Below are positions 19,033 to 38,789 of a stretch of DNA of 64,000 nucleotides, one piece after another (position 1 is the stretch's first letter; each line of letters starts with the position of its first letter). The position numbers were made by a program, and so were the translations under genes. Source of the stretch: Bryobacterales bacterium (lineage in GTDB: Bacteria; Acidobacteriota; Terriglobia; Bryobacterales; UBA6623); NCBI GenBank assembly GCA_965248205.1, contig CBDFIS010000006.1, positions 3,202,492 to 3,266,491 on the forward strand, read 5' to 3'. The notes under the pieces are model-generated. The model saw nothing but the letters and a program-made list of their open reading frames with translations. It was not told the origin of the DNA and did no database searches.

Positions 19033-20361
19033 CAGTGCTGTCCGGGGAAAGTCGCGCCATCGGACGGTAAGTCTCGACCGTTCAATGTCTTATGGCCTGT
19101 TTTGCCCGGGAACGATTTGAAATCCCGAGGCCGCAAATGGTCGCCTGAACGGAGCATCCGGACGCGGCACAATGAGGGATGAACCTTGGCCGTACGGTTT
19201 TCTCCCAACTGATCGAGCACCTACCGAGCAAAGAGTTTCAGAAATGTGTATCGCGCTACCGCGGCGATTCCTATCTGAAAAGTTTCTCCTGCTGGGATCA
19301 GTTTCTTGCGATGGCATTCGCCCAGCTGACCTATCGGGCAAGCCTCCGCGACATCGAGACGTGCCTGCGTTCGATGCACGGCAAACTCTACCACATGGGA
19401 TTCCGCGGCAGGGTAGCGCGCTCGACACTGGCCGACGCGAACGAGTCGCGCGACTGGCGGATCTACGCGGACTTCGCGCAGGTCTTGATTGGCATGGCAC
19501 GGCCGTTATATGCCCACGACCCGATCGGTGTGGACTTGGACCAGACTCTGTACGCTCTCGACTCGACAACAATCGACCTCTGCCTGTCGCTGTTTCCGTG
19601 GGCGAGATTCCGCAAGCAAAAAGCCGCCGTGAAGATGCACACGCTGCTGGATCTGCACGGCAATATTCCCACGTTCATCCGCATTACTGGAGGCAAAGTG
19701 CACGACATCAACATCCTCGACGAGATCGGCCCGGAGGCCGGCGCGTTCTACGTCATGGATCGGGCCTACGTCGATTTCGAACGCCTCTTCGTGTTCACTC
19801 TCTGCTCGTCGTTCTTCGTCGTGCGAACCAAGAAGAACATCTTGCTCCAACGGCGCTACTCGCATCCCGTCGACAAATCCACGGGCTTGCGCTCGGATCA
19901 GACCGTCATACTGGCTGCCATCGAATCGGCCCAAGCCTATCCCGACCCGTTGCGGAGGGTCAGTTACTTCGACGCCCGGACGAACAAGCGGCTGAAGTTT
20001 CTGACCAACAACTTCGCGCTCCCGGCGCTGACCATCGCCCACATCTACAAGTCGCGTTGGCAGATTGAGTTGTTCTTCAAGTGGATCAAGCAACATCTGC
20101 GAATCAACTCGTTTTACGGCACCAGCGAGAACGCCGTCAAGACGCAGATCTGGATCGCTGTCTCGATTTACGTGCTCATCGCCATCGTCCGGAAACGCCT
20201 CGGGCTGGAAGCGAGTCTTTACCAGATTCTACAGATTCTCAGCGTTACGCAATTCGAAAAAATGCCCCTTTTACAGGCACTCCAGCCATCCGACTCCCCA
20301 AACGAATCCCCCTATGACCCCAACCAATTGATTCTATTCGACTTTTAACCGGACAGCAGTG
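19033..20361 (+). mobile_element. IS4-family insertion sequence, copy 1 (1329 bp)
   Basis: Ends CAGTGCTGTCCGG and CCGGACAGCAGTG (12/13 inverted repeat); 9-bp TSD CTGCGCAAT at 19024-19032 and 20362-20370. Confidence 0.97.
19179..20348 (+). CDS. IS4 family DDE transposase (DUF4372 + DDE_Tnp_1 type)
   Basis: 389 aa; YALDSTTIDL, KMHTLLDL, VMDRAY and IYKSRWQIELFFKWIKQ motifs. Confidence 0.95.
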   Translation: MNLGRTVFSQLIEHLPSKEFQKCVSRYRGDSYLKSFSCWDQFLAMAFAQLTYRASLRDIETCLRSMHGKLYHMGFRGRVARSTLADANESRDWRIYADFAQVLIGMARPLYAHDPIGVDLDQTLYALDSTTIDLCLSLFPWARFRKQKAAVKMHTLLDLHGNIPTFIRITGGKVHDINILDEIGPEAGAFYVMDRAYVDFERLFVFTLCSSFFVVRTKKNILLQRRYSHPVDKSTGLRSDQTVILAAIESAQAYPDPLRRVSYFDARTNKRLKFLTNNFALPALTIAHIYKSRWQIELFFKWIKQHLRINSFYGTSENAVKTQIWIAVSIYVLIAIVRKRLGLEASLYQILQILSVTQFEKMPLLQALQPSDSPNESPYDPNQLILFDF

Positions 20362-23919: not shown

Positions 23920-26900
23920 ATGCCGGGAGACGTCTCTAGAAGAGGCTTCGTCAAGACAAGCGCCGCGCTGGCGACGACGGCGTTCGGGTTCGATCTGCGG
24001 CCCGCTCAGGCCGCCGCCCGCGAGCTGAAGATCGCGCGGACGACCGAGACCCACAGTATTTGCCCTTACTGCGCGGTCGGCTGCAGCGTCGTCATCCACA
24101 CGCTCGGCGACAAGGCGAAAAACGTCAAGCCGACGGTCGTTCACATCGAGGGCGATCCGTCGAGTCCGATCAATCGCGGGACGCTGTGTTCCAAGGGCAT
24201 TTCCCTCAAAGAATTCGTTGTCAATGAGCGGCGGCTGACGCGACCGCTCTATCGCGCGCCGGGCGCGACCGAGTGGAAGGCGATTTCCTGGGACGAGGCC
24301 ATTGGAAAGATGGCCCGACGGATCAAAGACTCGCGCGACCGGGGGTTCGAGGCTCGCGACCCCCAGGGCCGCACGGTCAACCGTCTCGCCAACGTCGCCA
24401 TGATCGGCGGCTGCACCGACACGAACGAGATCAACTATCTGCTCGGCAAGCTGCGCTTCAGCCTGGGCGTATTGGCTTACGAAAACCAGGCCCGTCTTTG
24501 ACACGGTCCCACGGTGGCCAGTCTGGCCGCCACGTTCGGCCGCGGCGCCATGACGAATGGTTGGACCGACGTGGCCAACACGGACGTCGTGTTGGTAATG
24601 GGCGGCAATCCGGCCGAAAACCATCCCGTCGGCTTCCGTTTCGTCATGGAAGCCAAACGCCATCGCAAGGCGAAACTGGTGTGTGTCGATCCGCGCTTCA
24701 ATCGCACAGCGGCGGTTTCCGACAGCTATGTGCAGATTCGCTCCGGCAGCGACATCGCCTTCTTGGGCGGACTGATCCACTACGCCCTGTCCCACGACCA
24801 ATACCACGCCGACTACGTGCGCGAACATACGAACGCAACGTTCCTGGTAGGGGAAGGCTTCGCCTTTGAAGATGGCTATTTCTCCGGATGGGACGCAGCC
24901 AAGAAGCGCTACGACAAGTCCACATGGCGATACGAACTTGACGGGCGCGGCTTCGCCAGAGTGGATCGCACGCTAGAGCATCCGCGCTCCGTTTTCCAAT
25001 TACTCAAGAAGCACTATACGCGTTACACGCCCGACAAAGTGGCCGCCATTTGCGGCTGCTCGGCCGAAGCATTCGAGAAGGCCGCCGAGGTTATCTGTTC
25101 GACGGGACGAGCCGGACGTTCGGGCACCATCCTTTACGCGCTCGGGTGGACGCAGCACAGCCACTCGGTACAGTTGATCCATACCGCGGCGATGCTGCAG
25201 TTGTTGTTGGGCAATGTCGGCATCCCCGGCGGAGGCGTCAACGCCCAGCGCGGCCACTCGAATATTCAAGGCGCTACCGACCTGGGCGCGTGGAACATGC
25301 TTCCCGGCTACCTGAAGCTGCCGAGGGCCGATTGGACCACGCTGGCGGAGTACGTAAGAGCAAACTCGCCAAAGCCTCTGCGTCCGAACTCACTCAACTA
25401 CTGGGAAAACACGTCGAAGTTCATGGTCAGCTTGCTCAAGGCCTACTACGGCGAGAGTGCGAGCCGGAAAAACGATTTCGGGTACGACAATCTGCCCAAA
25501 ATCGCCGAAGGCGACGATCACAGCTGGGGCTTTCTTTTCGACAAGATGTACGCCGACGAAGTGGAAGGGATGCTCTCGTTCGGCATGAACCCGGTCGCGA
25601 ACGGGCCCAACACCGTCAAGATGATCGAGGCGCTCGGGAAATTGAAATGGTTGATCGTCGCCGAGAACTTCGAGACCGAAACCGCGGCCTTTTGGAAAGC
25701 GAAAACACTGGCGAAGGAGTACTATCCCGGAGTCACCGATCCCGCGGACATCCAGACGGAAGTTTTCCTGCTGCCGGCCTCCTGCTTCGCGGAGAAAGAC
25801 GGCACGTTCGTAAATTCCTCGCGCTGGTTGCAGTGGAAATATAAAGCGCTCGACGCCCCCGGTGAAGCGAAAGACGATCAAGAAATCATCGCCCGCCTGT
25901 TTTTGAAGATCCGCGAACTCTATGAGAAAGAAAGCGGCACAGCGCCCGAGCCATTACTGGCGATGGATTGGAGCTACGCGAATCCCGTGGCCCCTTCGCT
26001 GGAAGAAGTCGCAAAGGAAATCAGCGGCCAGGAGATTTCGAGCGGTCACCAGGTACCTGGGTTTGGCGCGCTCAAGGACGACGGCTCGACCTTGTGCGGT
26101 AACTGGCTGTATTCGGGATCAGTCACGGAAGACGGCAACCTGATTGCTCGCCAGGGACAGGAGGACCCGACCGGGCTCGGCCTCTACGCCAACTGGGCGT
26201 GGAGCTGGCCCGCAAATAGACGAGTGCTCTACAATCGCGCCTCCGCGGACGCGAGCGGAAAGCCCTGGGACGAAAGCCGCGCGGCGATCCGTTGGAAAGA
26301 CGGCCGCTGGACGGGCGACGTACCCGACTACAAGGCCGATGCGCCGCCGGACGCCAACGGCGCGTTCATCATGTTGGCGGAAGGCGTGGCGAAGCTCTTT
26401 GCGTCGGATTTCGTGGAAGGGCCGTTCCCCGAGCACTACGAGCCGGCCGAGTCGCCGGTCGAGAACCTGCTGCATCCCGAAGTCGGGAGCAATCCCGCGA
26501 TGAAGGTTTTCTCAAGCGACCTCGACTCGCTCGGCGATGCCGCGAAATATCCCTACGTAGCGATCACCTATCGGCTGACCGAACACTTCCATTACTGGAC
26601 GAAGCACGTCAGCGCAACTTCACAGCTGCAGTCCAACTTCTTCGTCGAACTACCAGCGGAGCTGGCTGACGAAAAGAACATTCGCAGCGGAGACGCGGTG
26701 CGGGTGAGCTCGGCGCGCGGCAGCGTGGAAGGGCCGGCGCTGGTCACAAAGCGGATGAAAGGCCTGCAGGTCGCCGGCAAGACGATTTACCACGTCGGCT
26801 TGCCGATCCATTGGGGTTTCCTGGGACGCGTCAAAGGCCCGTTGATCAACAACCTGACACCGTCGGTGATGGACCCGAATTCAGGTACACCCGAATACAA

Positions 26901-26931
26901 GGGGTTCTTGGTGAACATGGAGAAGGTTTGA
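23920..26931 (+). CDS. fdnG: Formate dehydrogenase-N alpha subunit, selenocysteine-containing (Sec194 at TGA 24499-24501)
   Basis: Tat signal SRRGFVK; CPYCAVGC..C Fe-S motif; ENQARL-TGA-HGPTVASLAATFGRGAMTN matches the FdnG NQARxUHGPTVASL..TFGRGAMTN motif; the two ORF-track pieces are in the same frame (1003 aa in total). Confidence 0.95.
24513..24531 (+). promoter_or_regulatory. Bacterial SECIS element
   Basis: GGUGGCCA-GUC-UGGCCGCC hairpin with GU in the apical region, starting 11 nt after the UGA, the same spacing as in E. coli fdhF/fdnG. Confidence 0.85.
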
Positions 26932-27006
26932 AAATGGGGCTTGGGAAATGGGAACAGTCAGCCAATTTCCTTTTCGCCATTCCCTGCTGAATAGCTAAAC
27001 CCAAGC

Positions 27007-27846
27007 ATGCACACCGTTGCCAAACTGATCGATACGACGACTTGCATTGGCTGCAAAGCCTGCGAGGTCGCCTGCCAGGAGTGGAACGATCAGCAATTCA
27101 CCATCGGCACATTCGACGGTACCTACCAGACGCTACCCGATCTCGAACACAACTTTTGGAACTTGATCAAGTTCAACGAGTTCGAACGCGAAGACGGCGA
27201 ACTCACCTGGAACATGGTCAAGTACCAGTGCATGCACTGCATTGACCCGGGCTGCCTGAAGGCCTGCCCCGCGCCGGGAGCAATCTTTCGACAGGAAGAC
27301 GGCATTGTCGATTTTGACCACGACAAGTGCATCGGCTGCGGTTATTGCATTACCGGATGTCCTTTCGACGTGCCGCGGCTGAGCCCCAAGACGAAAAAGG
27401 TCTACAAGTGTTCGCTTTGTTCGGACCGTACAGCCGTCGGGCTCGAACCGGCGTGCATCAAGGCCTGTCCGACAAACTGCCTGAGCTTCGGTACACGCGA
27501 AGACTTGATCCAGATCGCAAACGCTCGGGTGACCGAATTGCGGGACGACGGGCACGTCCAAGCCGGTGTCTACAACCCGGAAGGCGTCGGCGGGACGCAC
27601 GTGCTCTACGTCTTGCGAGACTCCTCGGATCCGGAAAGTTACGGGCTTCCCAAGGACCCCAAGATCCCTTGGACCGTGGCGCTATGGAAGGGTCCGCTCA
27701 AATGGCTTGGCAACTTAGTTCTTGTCGGTGGGATTTTGGGAACGTTCTTCCACTACTTGCGGTATGGGCCGCGGACTTATGAGGATGCCGGGCCAAGCGC
27801 CGAGATCCAGCCCATCGAACCTGACCCTGACGATGTCAAAGTCTAG
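27007..27846 (+). CDS. fdnH: Formate dehydrogenase iron-sulfur (beta) subunit
   Basis: CIGCKACEVACQEWN, CMHCIDPGCLKACP, CIGCGYCITGCPF, KCSLC..R..EPACIKACP; C-terminal TM helix. Confidence 0.95.
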   Translation: MHTVAKLIDTTTCIGCKACEVACQEWNDQQFTIGTFDGTYQTLPDLEHNFWNLIKFNEFEREDGELTWNMVKYQCMHCIDPGCLKACPAPGAIFRQEDGIVDFDHDKCIGCGYCITGCPFDVPRLSPKTKKVYKCSLCSDRTAVGLEPACIKACPTNCLSFGTREDLIQIANARVTELRDDGHVQAGVYNPEGVGGTHVLYVLRDSSDPESYGLPKDPKIPWTVALWKGPLKWLGNLVLVGGILGTFFHYLRYGPRTYEDAGPSAEIQPIEPDPDDVKV

Positions 27847-28456
27847 CGAGAGAAGAGTTGAGCGATTCTCGTTCAACGAACGGGCTATCCACTGGATGGC
27901 AGCGATCAGTTTTCTCTACGCTGCGCTCACAGGGCTGGCGCTCTGGACTCCGCACCTGTTCTGGCTGGCAGGAGTATTCGGTGGAGGCGAAACGGTTCGT
28001 TGGGGACACCCTTGGGGCGGAGTGATCTTTGCCGTCGTCCTGGGTTTCATGTTCCGTAACTGGGCGCGCCAGATGCGACTTGATTCCGACGATAGGGTCT
28101 GGCTGCGGAATGCTCACAAGTACGCCGTACACGACGACAAGGGACTGCCCGAGGCCGGACGCTTCAATGCCGGCCAGAAAATGCTTTTCTGGGTGCAAAC
28201 CGGATGCACGCTTCTGCTATTCGCCAGCGGTATCGTGCTGTGGTTTCCCGAAGCAATGCCCCGATCCTTACGCCTGGCCGCAATCCTGATCCATCCCGCT
28301 GTCGCCGTCACTTCGATTGGCGGAATCATCGTCCATATCTACATGGGCACCGCAGCGGTTCCTGAAGCCTTCCGAGGGATGATCCAAGGATGGGTGAAGC
28401 CGGGCTGGGCTGCTTCCCACCACCCCAAGTGGTACCGGGAGATCTCGAAGAGATAG
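27833..28456 (+). CDS. fdnI: Formate dehydrogenase cytochrome b556 (gamma) subunit
   Basis: ERAIHW, WGHPWGG, GRFNAGQK, IHPA, VHIYMG, FRGMIQGWV..WAASHHPKWY; ATG 27833 overlaps the fdnH end. Confidence 0.93.
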   Translation: MSKSSERRVERFSFNERAIHWMAAISFLYAALTGLALWTPHLFWLAGVFGGGETVRWGHPWGGVIFAVVLGFMFRNWARQMRLDSDDRVWLRNAHKYAVHDDKGLPEAGRFNAGQKMLFWVQTGCTLLLFASGIVLWFPEAMPRSLRLAAILIHPAVAVTSIGGIIVHIYMGTAAVPEAFRGMIQGWVKPGWAASHHPKWYREISKR

Positions 28457-28479
28457 CGTTAGGGCTACTGCGAACAGGA

Positions 28480-28785
28480 TCAGCTAGCAGCTTTCTTTAA
28501 TGCTTTGCGGGTCGCCGCCCGCTTCTTGGTTTGCGTGCGTTGCCGTGGGTTCACCTGAGCTGCATCCACTGTCAGGTTGCTCTCATTTTCGAACCGCTGA
28601 ATACCAATATCTAGGACCGGCACGATAGCAGCCGGACTTAAGTCTCCCGATTGCTCTCCGATGTTGGCGCCTTTGATACCAAACCTTATGTAGATACCCC
28701 AAATACCTTCATGGATGCCCTGCTTTTTCACAAGGGCCTCAGTCACTTCTCCGTAACTGAAAGTAATCTGCTTCGTTTCAGCCAT
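28480..28785 (-). CDS. Hypothetical protein (101 aa), third gene of the toxin/HTH module
   Basis: MAETKQITFSYGEVTEALVKKQGIHEGIWGIYIRFG...; its ATG overlaps the HTH gene stop (ATGGCTGA). Confidence 0.75.
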   Translation of the reverse strand: MAETKQITFSYGEVTEALVKKQGIHEGIWGIYIRFGIKGANIGEQSGDLSPAAIVPVLDIGIQRFENESNLTVDAAQVNPRQRTQTKKRAATRKALKKAAS

Positions 28786-29269
28786 AGATGGACCCCGCGG
28801 AACTTCCGACGTTGGAAGCGTGGTCGTCAAAGAAGCGAGCACCTGAAAGATTCTCCCCTGTGTTGAAGTTTTCCCGGTTGTCTGGCGACGGAAGAATAAT
28901 GGTGTACGAAGTACCATCATTCAACGAGAAAAAGTCGGCAGGCTTTCCAGCACGCTCCCAGCAAGAAAGAAAGATCTCAGAGTTGACAGGACCGTTATGG
29001 TTATCAGGGTCACCGTCATCATAGGCAACAACCGATACTTTCTTGCCCAGCGCACGAGCGTAGCGGACAATGTTCTTGAGGGTGACATTCCCAGGGTTGC
29101 TCAAAACCTGTGAAACCCGCCCTCTGGAAACGCCCAGCTTTTCGGCAAGAGCTGCCTGAGTGGTTTCGCCTGAATCTATCAATTTCTCAATTTGCGCAAC
29201 GAAATCCCAGCCAATCTTATACAGAAAATCCTCGACGCTCCGTTCAGTCCAATGCTTTAGTTCACCCAC
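28778..29269 (-). CDS. XRE/Cro-C1 HTH protein, putative antitoxin with C-terminal extension
   Basis: TTQAALAEKLGVSRGRVSQVLSNPGNVTLKNIVRYARALG HTH; its start overlaps the toxin stop by 13 nt. Confidence 0.85.
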   Translation of the reverse strand: MGELKHWTERSVEDFLYKIGWDFVAQIEKLIDSGETTQAALAEKLGVSRGRVSQVLSNPGNVTLKNIVRYARALGKKVSVVAYDDGDPDNHNGPVNSEIFLSCWERAGKPADFFSLNDGTSYTIILPSPDNRENFNTGENLSGARFFDDHASNVGSSAGSIYG

Positions 29270-29457
29270 TGTTGGCTACCTCCGCTATCTGGAAACGCTA
29301 TTGTGATAGCGTCACGCACCGAACTATCAACGCGCAAACCGTTGACCGCATCCAACTCGGTTATATCTGTCGCTTCCTGACTTTTCTTGGCGTGTGAGAC
29401 GAGAACACATAGCTGAAATCTCCTATTGGCGTTTGGTGTAGGGTGACAAAGAAAACC

Positions 29458-30786
29458 CAGTGCTGTCCGGGGAAAGTCGCGCCATCGGACGGTAAGTCTC
29501 GACCGTTCAATGTCTTATGGCCTGTTTTGCCCGGGAACGATTTGAAATCCCGAGGCCGCAAATGGTCGCCTGAACGGAGCATCCGGACGCGGCACAATGA
29601 GGGATGAACCTTGGCCGTACGGTTTTCTCCCAACTGATCGAGCACCTACCGAGCAAAGAGTTTCAGAAATGTGTATCGCGCTACCGCGGCGATTCCTATC
29701 TGAAAAGTTTCTCCTGCTGGGATCAGTTTCTTGCGATGGCATTCGCCCAGCTGACCTATCGGGCAAGCCTCCGCGACATCGAGACGTGCCTGCGTTCGAT
29801 GCACGGCAAACTCTACCACATGGGATTCCGCGGCAGGGTAGCGCGCTCGACACTGGCCGACGCGAACGAGTCGCGCGACTGGCGGATCTACGCGGACTTC
29901 GCGCAGGTCTTGATTGGCATGGCACGGCCGTTATATGCCCACGACCCGATCGGTGTGGACTTGGACCAGACTCTGTACGCTCTCGACTCGACAACAATCG
30001 ACCTCTGCCTGTCGCTGTTTCCGTGGGCGAGATTCCGCAAGCAAAAAGCCGCCGTGAAGATGCACACGCTGCTGGATCTGCACGGCAATATTCCCACGTT
30101 CATCCGCATTACTGGAGGCAAAGTGCACGACATCAACATCCTCGACGAGATCGGCCCGGAGGCCGGCGCGTTCTACGTCATGGATCGGGCCTACGTCGAT
30201 TTCGAACGCCTCTTCGTGTTCACTCTCTGCTCGTCGTTCTTCGTCGTGCGAACCAAGAAGAACATCTTGCTCCAACGGCGCTACTCGCATCCCGTCGACA
30301 AATCCACGGGCTTGCGCTCGGATCAGACCGTCATACTGGCTGCCATCGAATCGGCCCAAGCCTATCCCGACCCGTTGCGGAGGGTCAGTTACTTCGACGC
30401 CCGGACGAACAAGCGGCTGAAGTTTCTGACCAACAACTTCGCGCTCCCGGCGCTGACCATCGCCCACATCTACAAGTCGCGTTGGCAGATTGAGTTGTTC
30501 TTCAAGTGGATCAAGCAACATCTGCGAATCAACTCGTTTTACGGCACCAGCGAGAACGCCGTCAAGACGCAGATCTGGATCGCTGTCTCGATTTACGTGC
30601 TCATCGCCATCGTCCGGAAACGCCTCGGGCTGGAAGCGAGTCTTTACCAGATTCTACAGATTCTCAGCGTTACGCAATTCGAAAAAATGCCCCTTTTACA
30701 GGCACTCCAGCCATCCGACTCCCCAAACGAATCCCCCTATGACCCCAACCAATTGATTCTATTCGACTTTTAACCGGACAGCAGTG
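29458..30786 (+). mobile_element. IS4-family insertion sequence, copy 2 (1329 bp)
   Basis: Same ends as copy 1; 9-bp TSD AAGAAAACC at 29449-29457 and 30787-30795. Confidence 0.97.
29604..30773 (+). CDS. IS4 family DDE transposase
   Basis: Translation identical to 19179-20348. Confidence 0.95.
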   Translation: MNLGRTVFSQLIEHLPSKEFQKCVSRYRGDSYLKSFSCWDQFLAMAFAQLTYRASLRDIETCLRSMHGKLYHMGFRGRVARSTLADANESRDWRIYADFAQVLIGMARPLYAHDPIGVDLDQTLYALDSTTIDLCLSLFPWARFRKQKAAVKMHTLLDLHGNIPTFIRITGGKVHDINILDEIGPEAGAFYVMDRAYVDFERLFVFTLCSSFFVVRTKKNILLQRRYSHPVDKSTGLRSDQTVILAAIESAQAYPDPLRRVSYFDARTNKRLKFLTNNFALPALTIAHIYKSRWQIELFFKWIKQHLRINSFYGTSENAVKTQIWIAVSIYVLIAIVRKRLGLEASLYQILQILSVTQFEKMPLLQALQPSDSPNESPYDPNQLILFDF

Positions 30787-31220
30787 AAGAAAACCATATA
30801 ACCGATGGTGTTGGCGCCGTACCTTCCACTTGAACACGAAGCACTCCCTATAGCCTTCCTGATTGAAGCCATGGAACCATTTGGCATGTTTGCCACCCTC
30901 AATCCAATTCTCAAATCGACTCCTAAGTTCCCGCTCCTTCTTATCGTCCAGGCCTGCGAATACTACAGCCGCGTCGATCCCGCTGTCTTCCCGGCAGCAC
31001 AAAAAGACGACGCCTCGTCGATCTGACATCTTCAGCAGCCCTATGCGCTTGACGACGTATGTTTTGCTGGGCATTGCTGGAGACCAAACCGCAGAAGTTT
31101 AGGCATACGTATACCCGGCTGCCTCTAAGTTTACACATATCTAAACAATTCTGCAAGCAGTTTGTTGTCCCGGCTGCCCCGGTCCTAGCTGCTGAGGGTT
31201 CCTAGAACTCTGCCGCCAAC

Positions 31221-31760
31221 CTAAACCGTCAAGCCGGCGCTCCCCGACGCCTGGCCATTGGCTTGGACGTTGAACAGCCGGTTCCGCACGGCCCGCGCGC
31301 GGTTGCTACTCTCCCCGGCAGCGCCGGCGGCGAGCGTCACAACGCCCGTGACGACGGAGCTCGGTGTGACGCTGCTTCCGTCGGAGCGGCCCGTCAATGC
31401 TACACCGGCGGACAACTGGGCCTCGGCCTGAGCGCCGCCGTGGGCGAATGCCTTGAGGTCCACATCCCCACCAAGAGGCAGAGGCTCGGTCAGGGTCGAA
31501 GTCGCCGAGCTCGTCCCCCCGGCAAGGCCGATAAGCAAGTGACCCGCCGGGGGGTTGTTTCGCAGATCGAGCGCAACACCCAGAACCGACGGACCGGCAG
31601 CCGCGCCGTCGCCCTGACCGACGAGAGTGAGATTCAAGGCGATGCCGGCCGCACCCGTCGCGGCGGCGTCCGCCTGACCGCTAAGAGCCAGGCTGAGTTG
31701 CGCGGCTCCGGTGCCCGTGGCCGCGCCATCGCCTTGGCCAACTAGATCAACCAGCGGCAC
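31221..31760 (-). CDS. Gly/Ala-rich putative phage structural protein
   Basis: Repeated L.GQ.DGAA.G motifs; starts 1 nt after the stop of the upstream tail-like gene. Confidence 0.55.
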   Translation of the reverse strand: MPLVDLVGQGDGAATGTGAAQLSLALSGQADAAATGAAGIALNLTLVGQGDGAAAGPSVLGVALDLRNNPPAGHLLIGLAGGTSSATSTLTEPLPLGGDVDLKAFAHGGAQAEAQLSAGVALTGRSDGSSVTPSSVVTGVVTLAAGAAGESSNRARAVRNRLFNVQANGQASGSAGLTV

Positions 31761-31761
31761 G

Positions 31762-32175
31762 TTAGTCCTCGGTCACTTTGAGGCCGTTGACGGCAAACTT
31801 GGGTTGATCGTCGAGACCTACGGTCTTGGAAGGCGTAACGTCTCCCCAATAGAGCATATTGCCGGCCGTGGCGGCGTCGAACATCGCCCAGCCGACGATC
31901 GTGCCCCAGGCGGCGGTCGCCACCGGGAAAGTAACGACGGCCCCATTTTTCTTCTCCGTTGGATTGGTGCCGCTCGCCGCCGGAAAGTTCGTTGCGTCGT
32001 TGGTGATCCCTTGGCGGGCGTATGCGCCTCCTGACGGCTCAGTGATTCCACCGGTGTCGGTCGGTGTAGTTGTTGAGAGCGCTAAGTAAACGCTCACTGG
32101 CCGGACAAAGTCGGGGCCACCTAAGACATGGTCAAGTATCTGTGCTTCTAGGTAATCGGATTTTCCACCTGGCAT
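31762..32175 (-). CDS. Phage tail fibre-like protein (SDYLE..LD....YLAL.T..P..G..E..GG.YARQ family)
   Basis: MPGGKSDYLEAQILDHVLGG..VYLALSTTTPTDTGG..EPSGGAYARQ..VTFP.AT.AWGTI..A.FDAATAGNML.WG; GGAGG upstream of ATG 32175. Confidence 0.8.
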   Translation of the reverse strand: MPGGKSDYLEAQILDHVLGGPDFVRPVSVYLALSTTTPTDTGGITEPSGGAYARQGITNDATNFPAASGTNPTEKKNGAVVTFPVATAAWGTIVGWAMFDAATAGNMLYWGDVTPSKTVGLDDQPKFAVNGLKVTED

Positions 32176-32685
32176 ATCTCCTCCATTGCCTTCAGATGTT
32201 GTTGTAGGGCTATCTCCCGGTGCCACCGGGTACTGCTACCTCTCGCGCGCGCGAATCGGGAGTCTCAAACGTCGTAGGCTCCCCGCCGCCGCACACGGCA
32301 AACAAGTGGGGATAGCAGTGACTGTCGATTCCAGGGTAACGGTCGTCTTGTGATGTGACCGCCGGCCCGGAGACTAAGTGCTTGATAAGGTGCGGGATAA
32401 ATTCTTGGAACCGACGTGACCGAATGGACGCGCTGCGGCACTGGTCGCGAGACGGACCCGGCCGTTGAGGAAGCGAAGAGGCGTCCAGCAGGCAAAGTCG
32501 GCATGACGTGAGGCGACTCGGCGGAGTCTCAGATTTCAGAAACGCTAGATAGGTACAGCCGTACTCCCGCGCGCACAAAAAACGTACGCCTGCAAGCCGA
32601 ATACTCATCGATCGGCGCGAGCGCGGGAGTTCCCGCGGAGTCCTTCGAGTTATCATCTTGGCGTGGGCGTTCTCCCACCACGCCA

Positions 32686-33471
32686 GTGGTTCCTCGAGAT
32701 TTCGAAAAACTAAGCATCAAGCGGGTTCAGCGCGCGAGGGTTTTGTCCGAGCGCCATCCCGCTTCTCAAGACGCACTCCTCTTCTACAGCGAGATCTGCG
32801 GTTTTCAGCAAACTCTTGCACGGACCCTAGAAACGAGCGCTAGGGCATCGACCTCGGCGGGTACGTCTCAGAGGCCATGTCTTGACTTCGGGGCCGTTGT
32901 CTCGTTCCGCCAACCGTTGGTCGACCTGGTGCTTGCCAAAGCCCCCGATCCTCTTCAACGGTTAGCCGAAGATCTGGACGATGCATCCTGTCGAGCAGCG
33001 CTCGAAGCCTACCTCTGCCAGCGCGACACGATATCCCCTCGCAGCTTTTTCGCTCGGGTTTTGCTGCAACCGGCTGTTGCGGTTTCGCATAGGGATCCCC
33101 CTAGTGAGGCCCTCCAACTCTGCCCCCACTGCGGTCATCCTCCCCAGGTAGGCTGCCTGCGGCCGCAAGGTGACGGTACCTCTCTGTCACTTGTGTGCTC
33201 GCTGTGCCTGACCGAGTGGCCCTTCGCGCGCGGGCGTTGTCCAGCCTGTGGGTTAGCGGACGAGAAGAAGCTCGTCTACTATTCGGCCCCTGAACTCGAA
33301 CACCTACAGGTGCAGGTTTGCGAGTCCTGCCGACAGTACCTGCACCAGGTCAACTTCGCGAAGGACCCGCAGGCCGTCCCCGATGTGGACGAAGTTGCCG
33401 CCTTGCCGCTTGACGTTTGGGCGGCCAAGCAGAGTTTCCGAAAACTGCACCTGAACTTGGTGGGGATGTGA
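32686..33471 (+). CDS. fdhE: Formate dehydrogenase accessory protein FdhE
   Basis: CPHCG, LVCSLCLTEW..R.RCPACG, VCESCRQYL and DEVAALPLD motifs. Confidence 0.92.
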   Translation: MVPRDFEKLSIKRVQRARVLSERHPASQDALLFYSEICGFQQTLARTLETSARASTSAGTSQRPCLDFGAVVSFRQPLVDLVLAKAPDPLQRLAEDLDDASCRAALEAYLCQRDTISPRSFFARVLLQPAVAVSHRDPPSEALQLCPHCGHPPQVGCLRPQGDGTSLSLVCSLCLTEWPFARGRCPACGLADEKKLVYYSAPELEHLQVQVCESCRQYLHQVNFAKDPQAVPDVDEVAALPLDVWAAKQSFRKLHLNLVGM

Positions 33472-37460: not shown

Positions 37461-38789
37461 CAGTGCTGTCCGGGGAAAGTCGCGCCATCGGACGGTAAGT
37501 CTCGACCGTTCAATGTCTTATGGCCTGTTTTGCCCGGGAACGATTTGAAATCCCGAGGCCGCAAATGGTCGCCTGAACGGAGCATCCGGACGCGGCACAA
37601 TGAGGGATGAACCTTGGCCGTACGGTTTTCTCCCAACTGATCGAGCACCTACCGAGCAAAGAGTTTCAGAAATGTGTATCGCGCTACCGCGGCGATTCCT
37701 ATCTGAAAAGTTTCTCCTGCTGGGATCAGTTTCTTGCGATGGCATTCGCCCAGCTGACCTATCGGGCAAGCCTCCGCGACATCGAGACGTGCCTGCGTTC
37801 GATGCACGGCAAACTCTACCACATGGGATTCCGCGGCAGGGTAGCGCGCTCGACACTGGCCGACGCGAACGAGTCGCGCGACTGGCGGATCTACGCGGAC
37901 TTCGCGCAGGTCTTGATTGGCATGGCACGGCCGTTATATGCCCACGACCCGATCGGTGTGGACTTGGACCAGACTCTGTACGCTCTCGACTCGACAACAA
38001 TCGACCTCTGCCTGTCGCTGTTTCCGTGGGCGAGATTCCGCAAGCAAAAAGCCGCCGTGAAGATGCACACGCTGCTGGATCTGCACGGCAATATTCCCAC
38101 GTTCATCCGCATTACTGGAGGCAAAGTGCACGACATCAACATCCTCGACGAGATCGGCCCGGAGGCCGGCGCGTTCTACGTCATGGATCGGGCCTACGTC
38201 GATTTCGAACGCCTCTTCGTGTTCACTCTCTGCTCGTCGTTCTTCGTCGTGCGAACCAAGAAGAACATCTTGCTCCAACGGCGCTACTCGCATCCCGTCG
38301 ACAAATCCACGGGCTTGCGCTCGGATCAGACCGTCATACTGGCTGCCATCGAATCGGCCCAAGCCTATCCCGACCCGTTGCGGAGGGTCAGTTACTTCGA
38401 CGCCCGGACGAACAAGCGGCTGAAGTTTCTGACCAACAACTTCGCGCTCCCGGCGCTGACCATCGCCCACATCTACAAGTCGCGTTGGCAGATTGAGTTG
38501 TTCTTCAAGTGGATCAAGCAACATCTGCGAATCAACTCGTTTTACGGCACCAGCGAGAACGCCGTCAAGACGCAGATCTGGATCGCTGTCTCGATTTACG
38601 TGCTCATCGCCATCGTCCGGAAACGCCTCGGGCTGGAAGCGAGTCTTTACCAGATTCTACAGATTCTCAGCGTTACGCAATTCGAAAAAATGCCCCTTTT
38701 ACAGGCACTCCAGCCATCCGACTCCCCAAACGAATCCCCCTATGACCCCAACCAATTGATTCTATTCGACTTTTAACCGGACAGCAGTG
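37461..38789 (+). mobile_element. IS4-family insertion sequence, copy 3 (1329 bp)
   Basis: Same ends; 9-bp TSD TGTCGTATT at 37452-37460 and 38790-38798. Confidence 0.97.
37607..38776 (+). CDS. IS4 family DDE transposase
   Basis: Translation identical to the other two copies. Confidence 0.95.
   Translation: MNLGRTVFSQLIEHLPSKEFQKCVSRYRGDSYLKSFSCWDQFLAMAFAQLTYRASLRDIETCLRSMHGKLYHMGFRGRVARSTLADANESRDWRIYADFAQVLIGMARPLYAHDPIGVDLDQTLYALDSTTIDLCLSLFPWARFRKQKAAVKMHTLLDLHGNIPTFIRITGGKVHDINILDEIGPEAGAFYVMDRAYVDFERLFVFTLCSSFFVVRTKKNILLQRRYSHPVDKSTGLRSDQTVILAAIESAQAYPDPLRRVSYFDARTNKRLKFLTNNFALPALTIAHIYKSRWQIELFFKWIKQHLRINSFYGTSENAVKTQIWIAVSIYVLIAIVRKRLGLEASLYQILQILSVTQFEKMPLLQALQPSDSPNESPYDPNQLILFDF

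Follow-up and report, generated by a model that had tools for sequence, protein, structure and literature searches.

A module of three minus-strand genes, encoding a toxin, an antitoxin with an XRE-type helix-turn-helix (HTH) domain and a small protein that we refer to as gene 3, lies in a 64,000-nucleotide (nt) stretch of a Bryobacterales genome (contig CBDFIS010000006.1; the whole stretch is called the window here). On balance we read the module as a horizontally acquired, autoregulated type II toxin-antitoxin (TA) operon of HigBA type (toxin gene first) in which a third gene is obligate, and which would work like a toxin-antitoxin-chaperone (TAC) system with an undescribed accessory protein in place of the SecB chaperone. 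As judged from sequence comparison, the architecture, the range of partners and the tailed antitoxins of TACs are reproduced here with a third protein that is not SecB. TAC systems have so far been defined by SecB-like chaperones and have become a model of how a TA pair can acquire phage sensing through a third protein, and here an unannotated family of ~970 clusters (50% identity), drawn from many soil and sediment phyla, fills the SecB slot behind the same range of antitoxins.

Gene order, partner antitoxins and the gene 3 family

The three genes are closely coupled (Table 1), with the antitoxin gene overlapping the toxin stop by 13 nt and gene 3 overlapping the antitoxin stop by 8 nt (ATGGCTGA). 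These overlaps, the gene coordinates and the 159 amino acid (aa) length of the toxin after repair of its frame had been given by an earlier, sequence-only reading of this DNA and were all exact. The same reading had proposed a conserved, translationally coupled operon of toxin, HTH antitoxin and third gene, and this was borne out by a reverse count over toxin homologues from metagenomes for which 850 nt or more of downstream sequence exists (n = 54). An XRE antitoxin follows the toxin in all 54 of these loci and is itself followed by gene 3 in 43, with one variant of the toxin-antitoxin-gene 3 trio being present on 108 contigs. At seven of the 11 toxin loci without gene 3 (L066, L104, L106, L119, L121, L122 and L130) the third position is taken by a DUF3467 (PF11950) protein of ~107–118 aa.

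Starting from gene 3, we scanned a single genome of each species and obtained 64 loci, spread over Acidobacteriota, Chloroflexota, Nitrospirota, Verrucomicrobiota, Tectomicrobia, Methylomirabilota, Deinococcota and others. Linkage of gene 3 homologues to TA pairs, which the earlier reading had put forward for counting, holds throughout this set, since gene 3 comes directly after a same-strand antitoxin gene in all loci except those truncated by the end of a contig. The distance from antitoxin stop to gene 3 start ranges from −37 to +35 nt, with the identical 8-nt overlap seen in the window present in 16 of 56 loci, and many of the loci adjoin transposases or integrases.

Five antitoxin families stand in front of gene 3. 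HicB proteins (PF05534 and HicB_lk, above cut-off) are the partner at 35 loci, where a HicA-like gene almost always precedes them; the window's toxin-XRE pair recurs at 22–23 loci; Gp49 (PF05973, 53.9 bits) with an XRE protein is found at two; and DUF4258 with an MqsA-like zinc-ribbon HTH protein, and an HI1420-type antidote, are found at one locus each. Each partner antitoxin extends 42–110 aa past its family domain, the tails having a median length of ~64 aa in both main classes and reaching 87–110 aa in the HI1420-type and MqsA-like partners. The 35 of 64 loci with HicA-HicB pairs resemble HicAB systems in their ribbon-helix-helix (RHH) antitoxins, which pass the Pfam HicB cut-offs, but differ from them in the extra tail and in the third gene, and the window pair itself is not HicAB.

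Two proteins in which antitoxin and gene 3 sequences are joined were also seen. At L146 (247–1344; HicA, HicB and gene 3), a single 229-aa open reading frame (ORF; P0187) spans HicB and gene 3; we considered it as a HicB-gene 3 fusion and discarded it, since HicB is frameshifted in this long-read contig and the joined frame is probably an assembly or decay artefact. In P0267 (L149, 424–795; 123 aa) the first ~44 residues of the XRE antitoxin run straight into the core of gene 3; this protein resembles a deletion derivative of the operon, on a contig of 854 nt.

By homology searching, gene 3 is a member of a large, unnamed and undescribed protein family. Its homologues form 456 clusters at 90% identity, and a profile search retrieved 974 clusters (50% identity) at E ≤ 1e-3 and 446 at E ≤ 1e-10. 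Gene 3 has no match in Pfam (E ≤ 1), NCBIfam, PADLOC or PHROGs, and our literature search found no publication on the family; together with the partner survey, this supports and extends the earlier proposal of an undescribed tripartite TA module. The homologues are nearly all stand-alone proteins of 80–120 aa and are under strong purifying selection. They share a strongly conserved core of ~80 residues, with 12 invariant columns among 36 diverse members, which is acidic (median net charge −3 in the family) and usually followed by a K/R-rich basic tail. This tail has a net charge of +9 in the window copy; the L145 copy and P0116 are among the members in which it is missing or very short. The structural model (predicted local distance difference test, pLDDT, 79.6) consists of one helix, a long β-hairpin and a short strand. 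The public gene call P0047 (83 aa) begins at an internal GTG, 18 codons too late by the family alignment, and the 18 N-terminal residues that it omits include the family-conserved F9, E13, E16 and L18.

These observations bear on whether gene 3 belongs to the operon in any functional sense. A passenger with no mechanistic link, hitch-hiking on TA cassettes since addiction modules stabilise their neighbours, would suit a protein that has no recognisable function and with which no motif in the antitoxin tails co-varies. We consider this very improbable, as its start codon overlaps the preceding stop, or is a few nt away from it, at essentially every locus, and gene 3 keeps the same position and orientation behind five unrelated antitoxin families. 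Furthermore, its retention in 43 of 54 toxin loci, with another small protein in seven more, and the strong purifying selection on it are not what a hitch-hiker would be expected to show.

Table 1. Coordinates, in window positions, of the operon and of the element inserted in it
Feature	Position	Strand	Remarks
Toxin gene, 5' part	30787..31074	-	Codons 1-96; codons 94-96 are the right-hand target duplication copy
Toxin gene, 3' part	29257..29457	-	Codons 94-159 and stop; repaired frame 159 aa
XRE-HTH antitoxin, 163 aa	28778..29269	-	GTG start at 29269; HTH_3 match
Gene 3, 101 aa	28480..28785	-	ATG start at 28785; unnamed family
Probable promoter/operator region	31098..31145	-	Two TTTAG-N6-CTAAA-type palindromes, O1 and O2
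IS4-family insertion sequence, 1,329 bp	29458..30786	+	Transposase, inverted repeats, 9-bp target duplication
Transposase gene, 389 aa	29604-30773	+	NF033592, DUF4372, DDE_Tnp_1

Predicted toxin fold, antitoxin tail and probable operators

The toxin had been described in the sequence-only reading as RelE/HigB-like, which stands as far as predicted structure goes and finds no counterpart in Pfam or hhalign. There is no match to the toxin in Pfam, NCBIfam, PADLOC or PHROGs, and the RelE, Gp49, HigB and ParE Pfam models match none of 41 toxin-family members at E ≤ 10. Its homologues (46 clusters by word search; at least 162 metagenome loci) are all unannotated, and the family is so far known from environmental genomes only. 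The AlphaFold model, built on 41 sequences (pLDDT 89.9; predicted template modelling score, pTM, 0.86), starts with an N-terminal β-hairpin, which leads into two helices, then four strands and, at the C-terminus, a helical segment (H35–40, H44–58, E67–69, E78–85, E88–97, E108–118 and H125–147). This α1-α2-β1-4-α3 order is also on record for Gp49-like toxins, M. tuberculosis HigB(TAC) among them (PMC9098466).

Using Foldseek, the top PDB match of the toxin model was 7awk, M. tuberculosis HigB1/Rv1955 (E 0.031, probability 0.99), with a template modelling (TM) score of 0.43/0.53 (0.53 on the target) over 118 columns, and archaeal RelE 1wmi came lower in the list (E 0.47). The four antiparallel strands, flanking helices and long C-terminal helix of the RelE fold are all present in the model, this being a moderate and single significant-looking match. 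Searching the toxin profile against PDB sequences gave nothing meaningful, and hhalign comparison of the toxin family with gp49-like toxins returned a probability of 0.5%, a weak negative given a thin gp49 profile of 2–3 sequences. A RelE/HigB fold is supported for the modelled toxin by one moderate structural match rather than by sequence.

Gp49-like HigB and RelE-ParE toxins (PF05973) are likewise encoded first in an operon with an XRE antitoxin, and the predicted window toxin shares with Gp49-like HigB the α1-α2-β1-4 arrangement ahead of a long C-terminal helix. It differs from them in having no Pfam, NCBIfam or profile-profile match and in an extra N-terminal β-hairpin of ~30 aa. K82, R91, R106 and K118 are invariant or nearly so in the toxin family alignment, and these basic residues appear to map near the catalytic positions of HigB1. 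We infer that they are the equivalents of HigB1 K58/R68/R77/K95 (PMC9098466), in which case the near-invariant K118, at the end of β-4, would correspond to the catalytic K95.

The antitoxin contains a Cro/C1-type HTH at residues 30–78 (HTH_3, 37.2 bits; cut-off 23) and scores 22.6 bits against the TIGR02607 HigA equivalog model, below the cut-off of 47.7; it is an XRE-type antitoxin and not a named HigA equivalog. Among its homologues, which form 377 clusters and are almost all 150–210 aa in length, column conservation is high to about residue 117 and then falls to 0.2–0.27. The variable C-terminal tail that had been noticed earlier is therefore present, but at residues 118–163 it measures ~46–49 aa rather than the ~70 aa originally given; the family median is ~64 aa. 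Antitoxin tails are somewhat polar-rich and charge-poor, with ~30% hydrophobic residues.

Comparison of related loci located an operator motif upstream of the toxin genes. The palindrome TTTAG-N6-CTAAA occurs 24 times in 2,340 nt of upstream sequence, at 15 of 18 related loci, and once in 114 kb elsewhere in those loci, usually in two copies ~33 nt apart behind a TTGAC-like hexamer. In the window, O1 (31130–31145) has one mismatch and is the sole site with no more than one mismatch in the 64 kb, O2 (31098–31113) has two, and a TTGCAG hexamer resembling a −35 element lies just upstream of O1; a sigma-70 consensus scan of the operon's promoter region found nothing. This two-palindrome layout is that expected of an autoregulated TA operon, and the HTH antitoxin probably binds the predicted operators.

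Relation to TAC systems and the role of gene 3

TACs combine a HigBA, HicAB(RHH) or MqsRA pair, or an 'MqsA-like' or 'HTH-like' antitoxin, with a SecB-like chaperone, which binds a C-terminal chaperone addiction (ChAD) extension of variable sequence on the antitoxin; 'AC' derivatives that lack the toxin are known, and TAC loci look horizontally acquired (PMC5105189, PMC3581621). The SecB-TA proteins of different TACs share only 14–19% identity (PMC5105189), and E. coli HigBAC and CmdTAC sense phage structural proteins at the contact between chaperone and antitoxin (10.1101/2024.02.24.581848; PMC11618068).

As in M. tuberculosis HigB1-HigA1-SecB(TA) (Rv1955-1957), E. coli HigBAC and CmdTAC, the toxin, antitoxin and third gene examined here form a single co-oriented operon; the window pair is HigBA-like, and sister loci have HicAB, Gp49/XRE and MqsA-like pairs. 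The window toxin model is structurally closest to HigB1, and the window XRE-HTH antitoxin carries a sequence-variable C-terminal extension that appears ChAD-like by position. Furthermore, the third-gene module is common to HigA/XRE, HicB(RHH) and MqsA-like antitoxins, and both toxin-less derivatives and signs of horizontal transfer are found. The analogy with TACs is stronger than the earlier reading had made it, as gene 3 also accompanies HicAB, Gp49/XRE, MqsA-like and HI1420-type pairs, a spectrum that matches the one reported for TACs with SecB (PMC5105189, PMC3581621).

The likeness ends at the third protein, which is not a SecB homologue (PF02556). We tried and rejected an assignment of gene 3 to SecB, there being no PF02556 match and no SecB among its 118 Foldseek PDB matches; hhalign against SecB gave a probability of 0.15%, a weak negative since the SecB profile was thin (2–3 sequences). 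This agrees with the earlier view, formed by eye, that the third protein lacks the long C-terminal helices of SecB. Gene 3 is ~80–100 aa with a helix and a long β-hairpin, whereas SecB is ~155–180 aa; its tail is basic, in contrast to the acidic C-terminus of SecB; and its sequence varies far less between partner families than that of the SecB-TA proteins does. Since the family lacks a SecB homologue, we class the system as one that would work like a TAC and not as a member.

In the TAC-like reading, the 159-aa toxin would be a ribosome-dependent mRNA endonuclease of the RelE/Gp49 fold, which the XRE-HTH protein would neutralise, while also repressing the operon at its two TTTAG-N6-CTAAA operators. 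The fast-evolving, low-charge C-terminal tail would leave the antitoxin unstable or unfoldable on its own, and translational coupling would keep gene 3 synthesis in step with that of the antitoxin. Gene 3 would bind this tail, probably as an oligomer formed through the β-hairpin, and so keep the antitoxin active as a chaperone or stabiliser. Titration of gene 3, or displacement of the tail, would then free the toxin, and in known TACs phage structural proteins act as such a trigger.

Several results weigh against this. Gene 3 has no known fold, chaperone or other (best Foldseek E 1.2 in PDB and 0.18 in BFVD), and hydrophobic clustering in the antitoxin tails is not above that in shuffles. A conserved docking motif is absent from the tails compared, and within the XRE class the tails are at noise level already at 50–70% identity of the N-terminal domain. 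SecB-TA chaperones diverge with their ChAD partner and gene 3 does not: the identity of its core between HicB-linked and XRE-linked copies is 51%, the same as within the HicB class, and for 16 of 57 copies the nearest neighbour lies in the other partner class. The basic tail of gene 3 also fits nucleic-acid binding, and membership of the toxin in RelE has no Pfam, PDB-sequence or hhalign support, with the one Foldseek match at E = 0.03.

Other comparisons of the tails were likewise without signal. Local alignment of HicB-type with XRE-type tails gave scores equal to those of shuffles, with no shared docking motif, and comparison of the tails at gene 3 and DUF3467 loci was uninformative, as the tails of the gene 3 class have already diverged to noise among themselves. 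Transfer of a tail-plus-gene-3 cassette, considered for the single strong hit between classes (L013 against the XRE tails), was rejected because the two proteins are distant relatives throughout (26% identity). Either gene 3 recognises an unfolded, low-charge polypeptide regardless of its sequence, as SecB does, or its conserved surface targets something else.

One form of the second option would make gene 3 a nucleic-acid- or ribosome-binding accessory, acting as a co-repressor, an RNA-binding modulator or a tuner of the toxin's access to its RNA target rather than as an antitoxin chaperone, with the conserved core recognising a conserved cellular target. Such a role would be consistent with the K/R-rich tail (net +9 here and common in the family), with the very strong conservation of the core behind every partner TA family, suggesting an invariant partner, and with the linked toxins (HicA, Gp49/HigB, DUF4258 and the window family), which are all known or predicted ribonucleases (RNases). 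Nonetheless we think it fairly unlikely: some members (the L145 copy and P0116) have little or no basic tail, the core is acidic (median −3) with no significant match to a DNA- or RNA-binding fold, the antitoxins already have HTH or RHH DNA-binding domains, and the long C-terminal extension of every partner antitoxin would be left unexplained.

The third position is not exclusive to gene 3. In 7 of 54 loci a DUF3467 protein, comparably small, stands there behind the toxin-XRE pair of the window type, but gene 3 differs from DUF3467 proteins in the order of its predicted secondary structure. Gene 3 is not a DUF3467 protein, having no Pfam match and a probability of 0.2% by hhalign. Comparison of DUF3467 with SecB by hhalign was also negative, weakly so given the thin SecB profile (2–3 sequences), and searches of PDB with sequence profiles from gene 3 and DUF3467-type alignments gave nothing meaningful. 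Our literature search found no paper on DUF3467 function, and DUF3467 may be a second, unrelated TA accessory family. A bolder reading, which we hold only tentatively, is that gene 3 founds a new class of small and highly conserved TA accessory, mechanistically distinct from SecB, whose invariant surface recognises a conserved cellular or phage component and not the tail, with DUF3467 as a second independent cassette. If true, a portable 'sensor cassette' would couple at least five families of RNase TA pairs to one common signal.

Should gene 3 stabilise tailed antitoxins, as the TAC-like reading has it, 'chaperone addiction' would have evolved more than once with unrelated folds, and many TA pairs scored as two-gene systems would really be tripartite. 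Should it act otherwise, it would add a new regulatory layer to type II TA systems. In both cases gene 3 and DUF3467, two families of unknown function, gain a testable function, and the operon gains a defined operator motif.

Toxin disruption, genomic island and phage link

In the window the toxin frame, which begins at an ATG at 31074 on the minus strand, is broken after codon 93 by a 1,329-bp element (Table 1). Unrepaired, it reads into the insertion sequence (IS) to give a 134-aa fusion ORF (30670–31074). The element ends in 13-nt terminal inverted repeats (CAGTGCTGTCCGG / CACTGCTGTCCGG) and is flanked at 29449–29457 and 30787–30795 by a 9-bp target duplication, AAGAAAACC. Its transposase matches the NCBIfam NF033592 IS4 model at 248.6 bits (cut-off 115) as well as Pfam DUF4372 and DDE_Tnp_1, so that a DDE transposase, terminal inverted repeats and a target duplication in the expected range (9–12 bp) all place it in the IS4 family. 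Removal of the element and one copy of the duplication restores a single frame of 159 codons ending at 29257.

The insertion is independently proven by L001, a Bryobacterales metagenome-assembled genome that is collinear with the window (83–91% DNA identity on both sides) and has an intact toxin at the empty site. Its gene order is fdnI, gene 3, antitoxin, toxin, two small genes and fdhE; no element interrupts the toxin gene, and the alignment blocks from the two sides join precisely at the duplicated 8–9 nt. The insertion site falls inside predicted strand β-3 and separates the N-terminal 93 residues from the 3' part, which encodes the remainder of β-3, strand β-4 and the C-terminal helices and contains the family-invariant or near-invariant R106, F107, C110, K118 and D124. 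The toxin of this genome must be inactive, leaving only the antitoxin and gene 3 intact, and this copy is at best an antitoxin-gene 3 remnant.

The insertion is recent. The element is present in three 100% identical copies in the window (19033–20361, 29458–30786 and 37461–38789), each with a different 9-bp target duplication (CTGCGCAAT, AAGAAAACC and TGTCGTATT, respectively). Identical copies within 64 kb point to a recent transposition burst, and since each has its own duplication the element has been active in this genome.

The operon lies inside a 4.2-kb island (28457–32685), together with two phage-type genes, which splits the formate dehydrogenase genes fdnGHI (24514–28456) from fdhE (32686–33471). 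The same arrangement is found in L001, and the island is therefore older than the split of the two genomes. The GC content of the TA genes is 0.51, compared with 0.59 for the window, and we count this difference towards a foreign origin of the module, horizontal acquisition being part of the reading that we prefer on balance. A tRNA search found no flanking tRNA gene beside the island.

The operon had earlier been described as standing beside phage tail genes and had been likened to TACs as prophage-borne modules. The first description reduces to two genes on the minus strand at 31221–32226, between the TA operon and fdhE: one encodes a 154-aa Gp80-like protein (PF23140, podophage GP4 fibre I family; PHROG 240), and the other is a G/A-rich, repetitive ORF of 179 aa with no family match. 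Both are kept at the same place in L001 and are orphan phage-type genes without a prophage. A prophage-borne state finds no support, as there is no prophage at the locus, the three proteins have no meaningful PADLOC match, and gene 3 is found on one of 2.9 million viral contigs, in a trio with a gp49-like toxin and an XRE antitoxin (L145).

The phage link of the gene 3 family is weak, and by analogy with known TACs we would offer an anti-phage role of the trio as a hypothesis. A related possibility is a defence system in which gene 3 serves as the sensing or triggering subunit, binding a phage or mobile-element protein and thereby releasing or activating the toxin, with antitoxin stabilisation secondary or absent. 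This would parallel HigBAC and CmdTAC, in which the third protein senses phage structural proteins (10.1101/2024.02.24.581848; PMC11618068), and would suit the variable, transposase- or integrase-rich surroundings of the loci, the viral-contig copy and a distant homologue beside a phage Mu-F-like head gene. We regard it as unlikely, given that the toxin and gene 3 match no PADLOC model, that no neighbourhood proved to be enriched in defence genes and that a protein caught up in an arms race with phages would rarely be so strongly conserved in sequence.

The distant homologue, P0315 (L147, 2501–2809), has a 20-aa N-terminal extension and lies downstream of the Mu-F-like head morphogenesis gene. 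No toxin or antitoxin is recognisable at L147, and P0315 may be a phage-borne version of the gene 3 family. The head gene itself appears to contain an intein.

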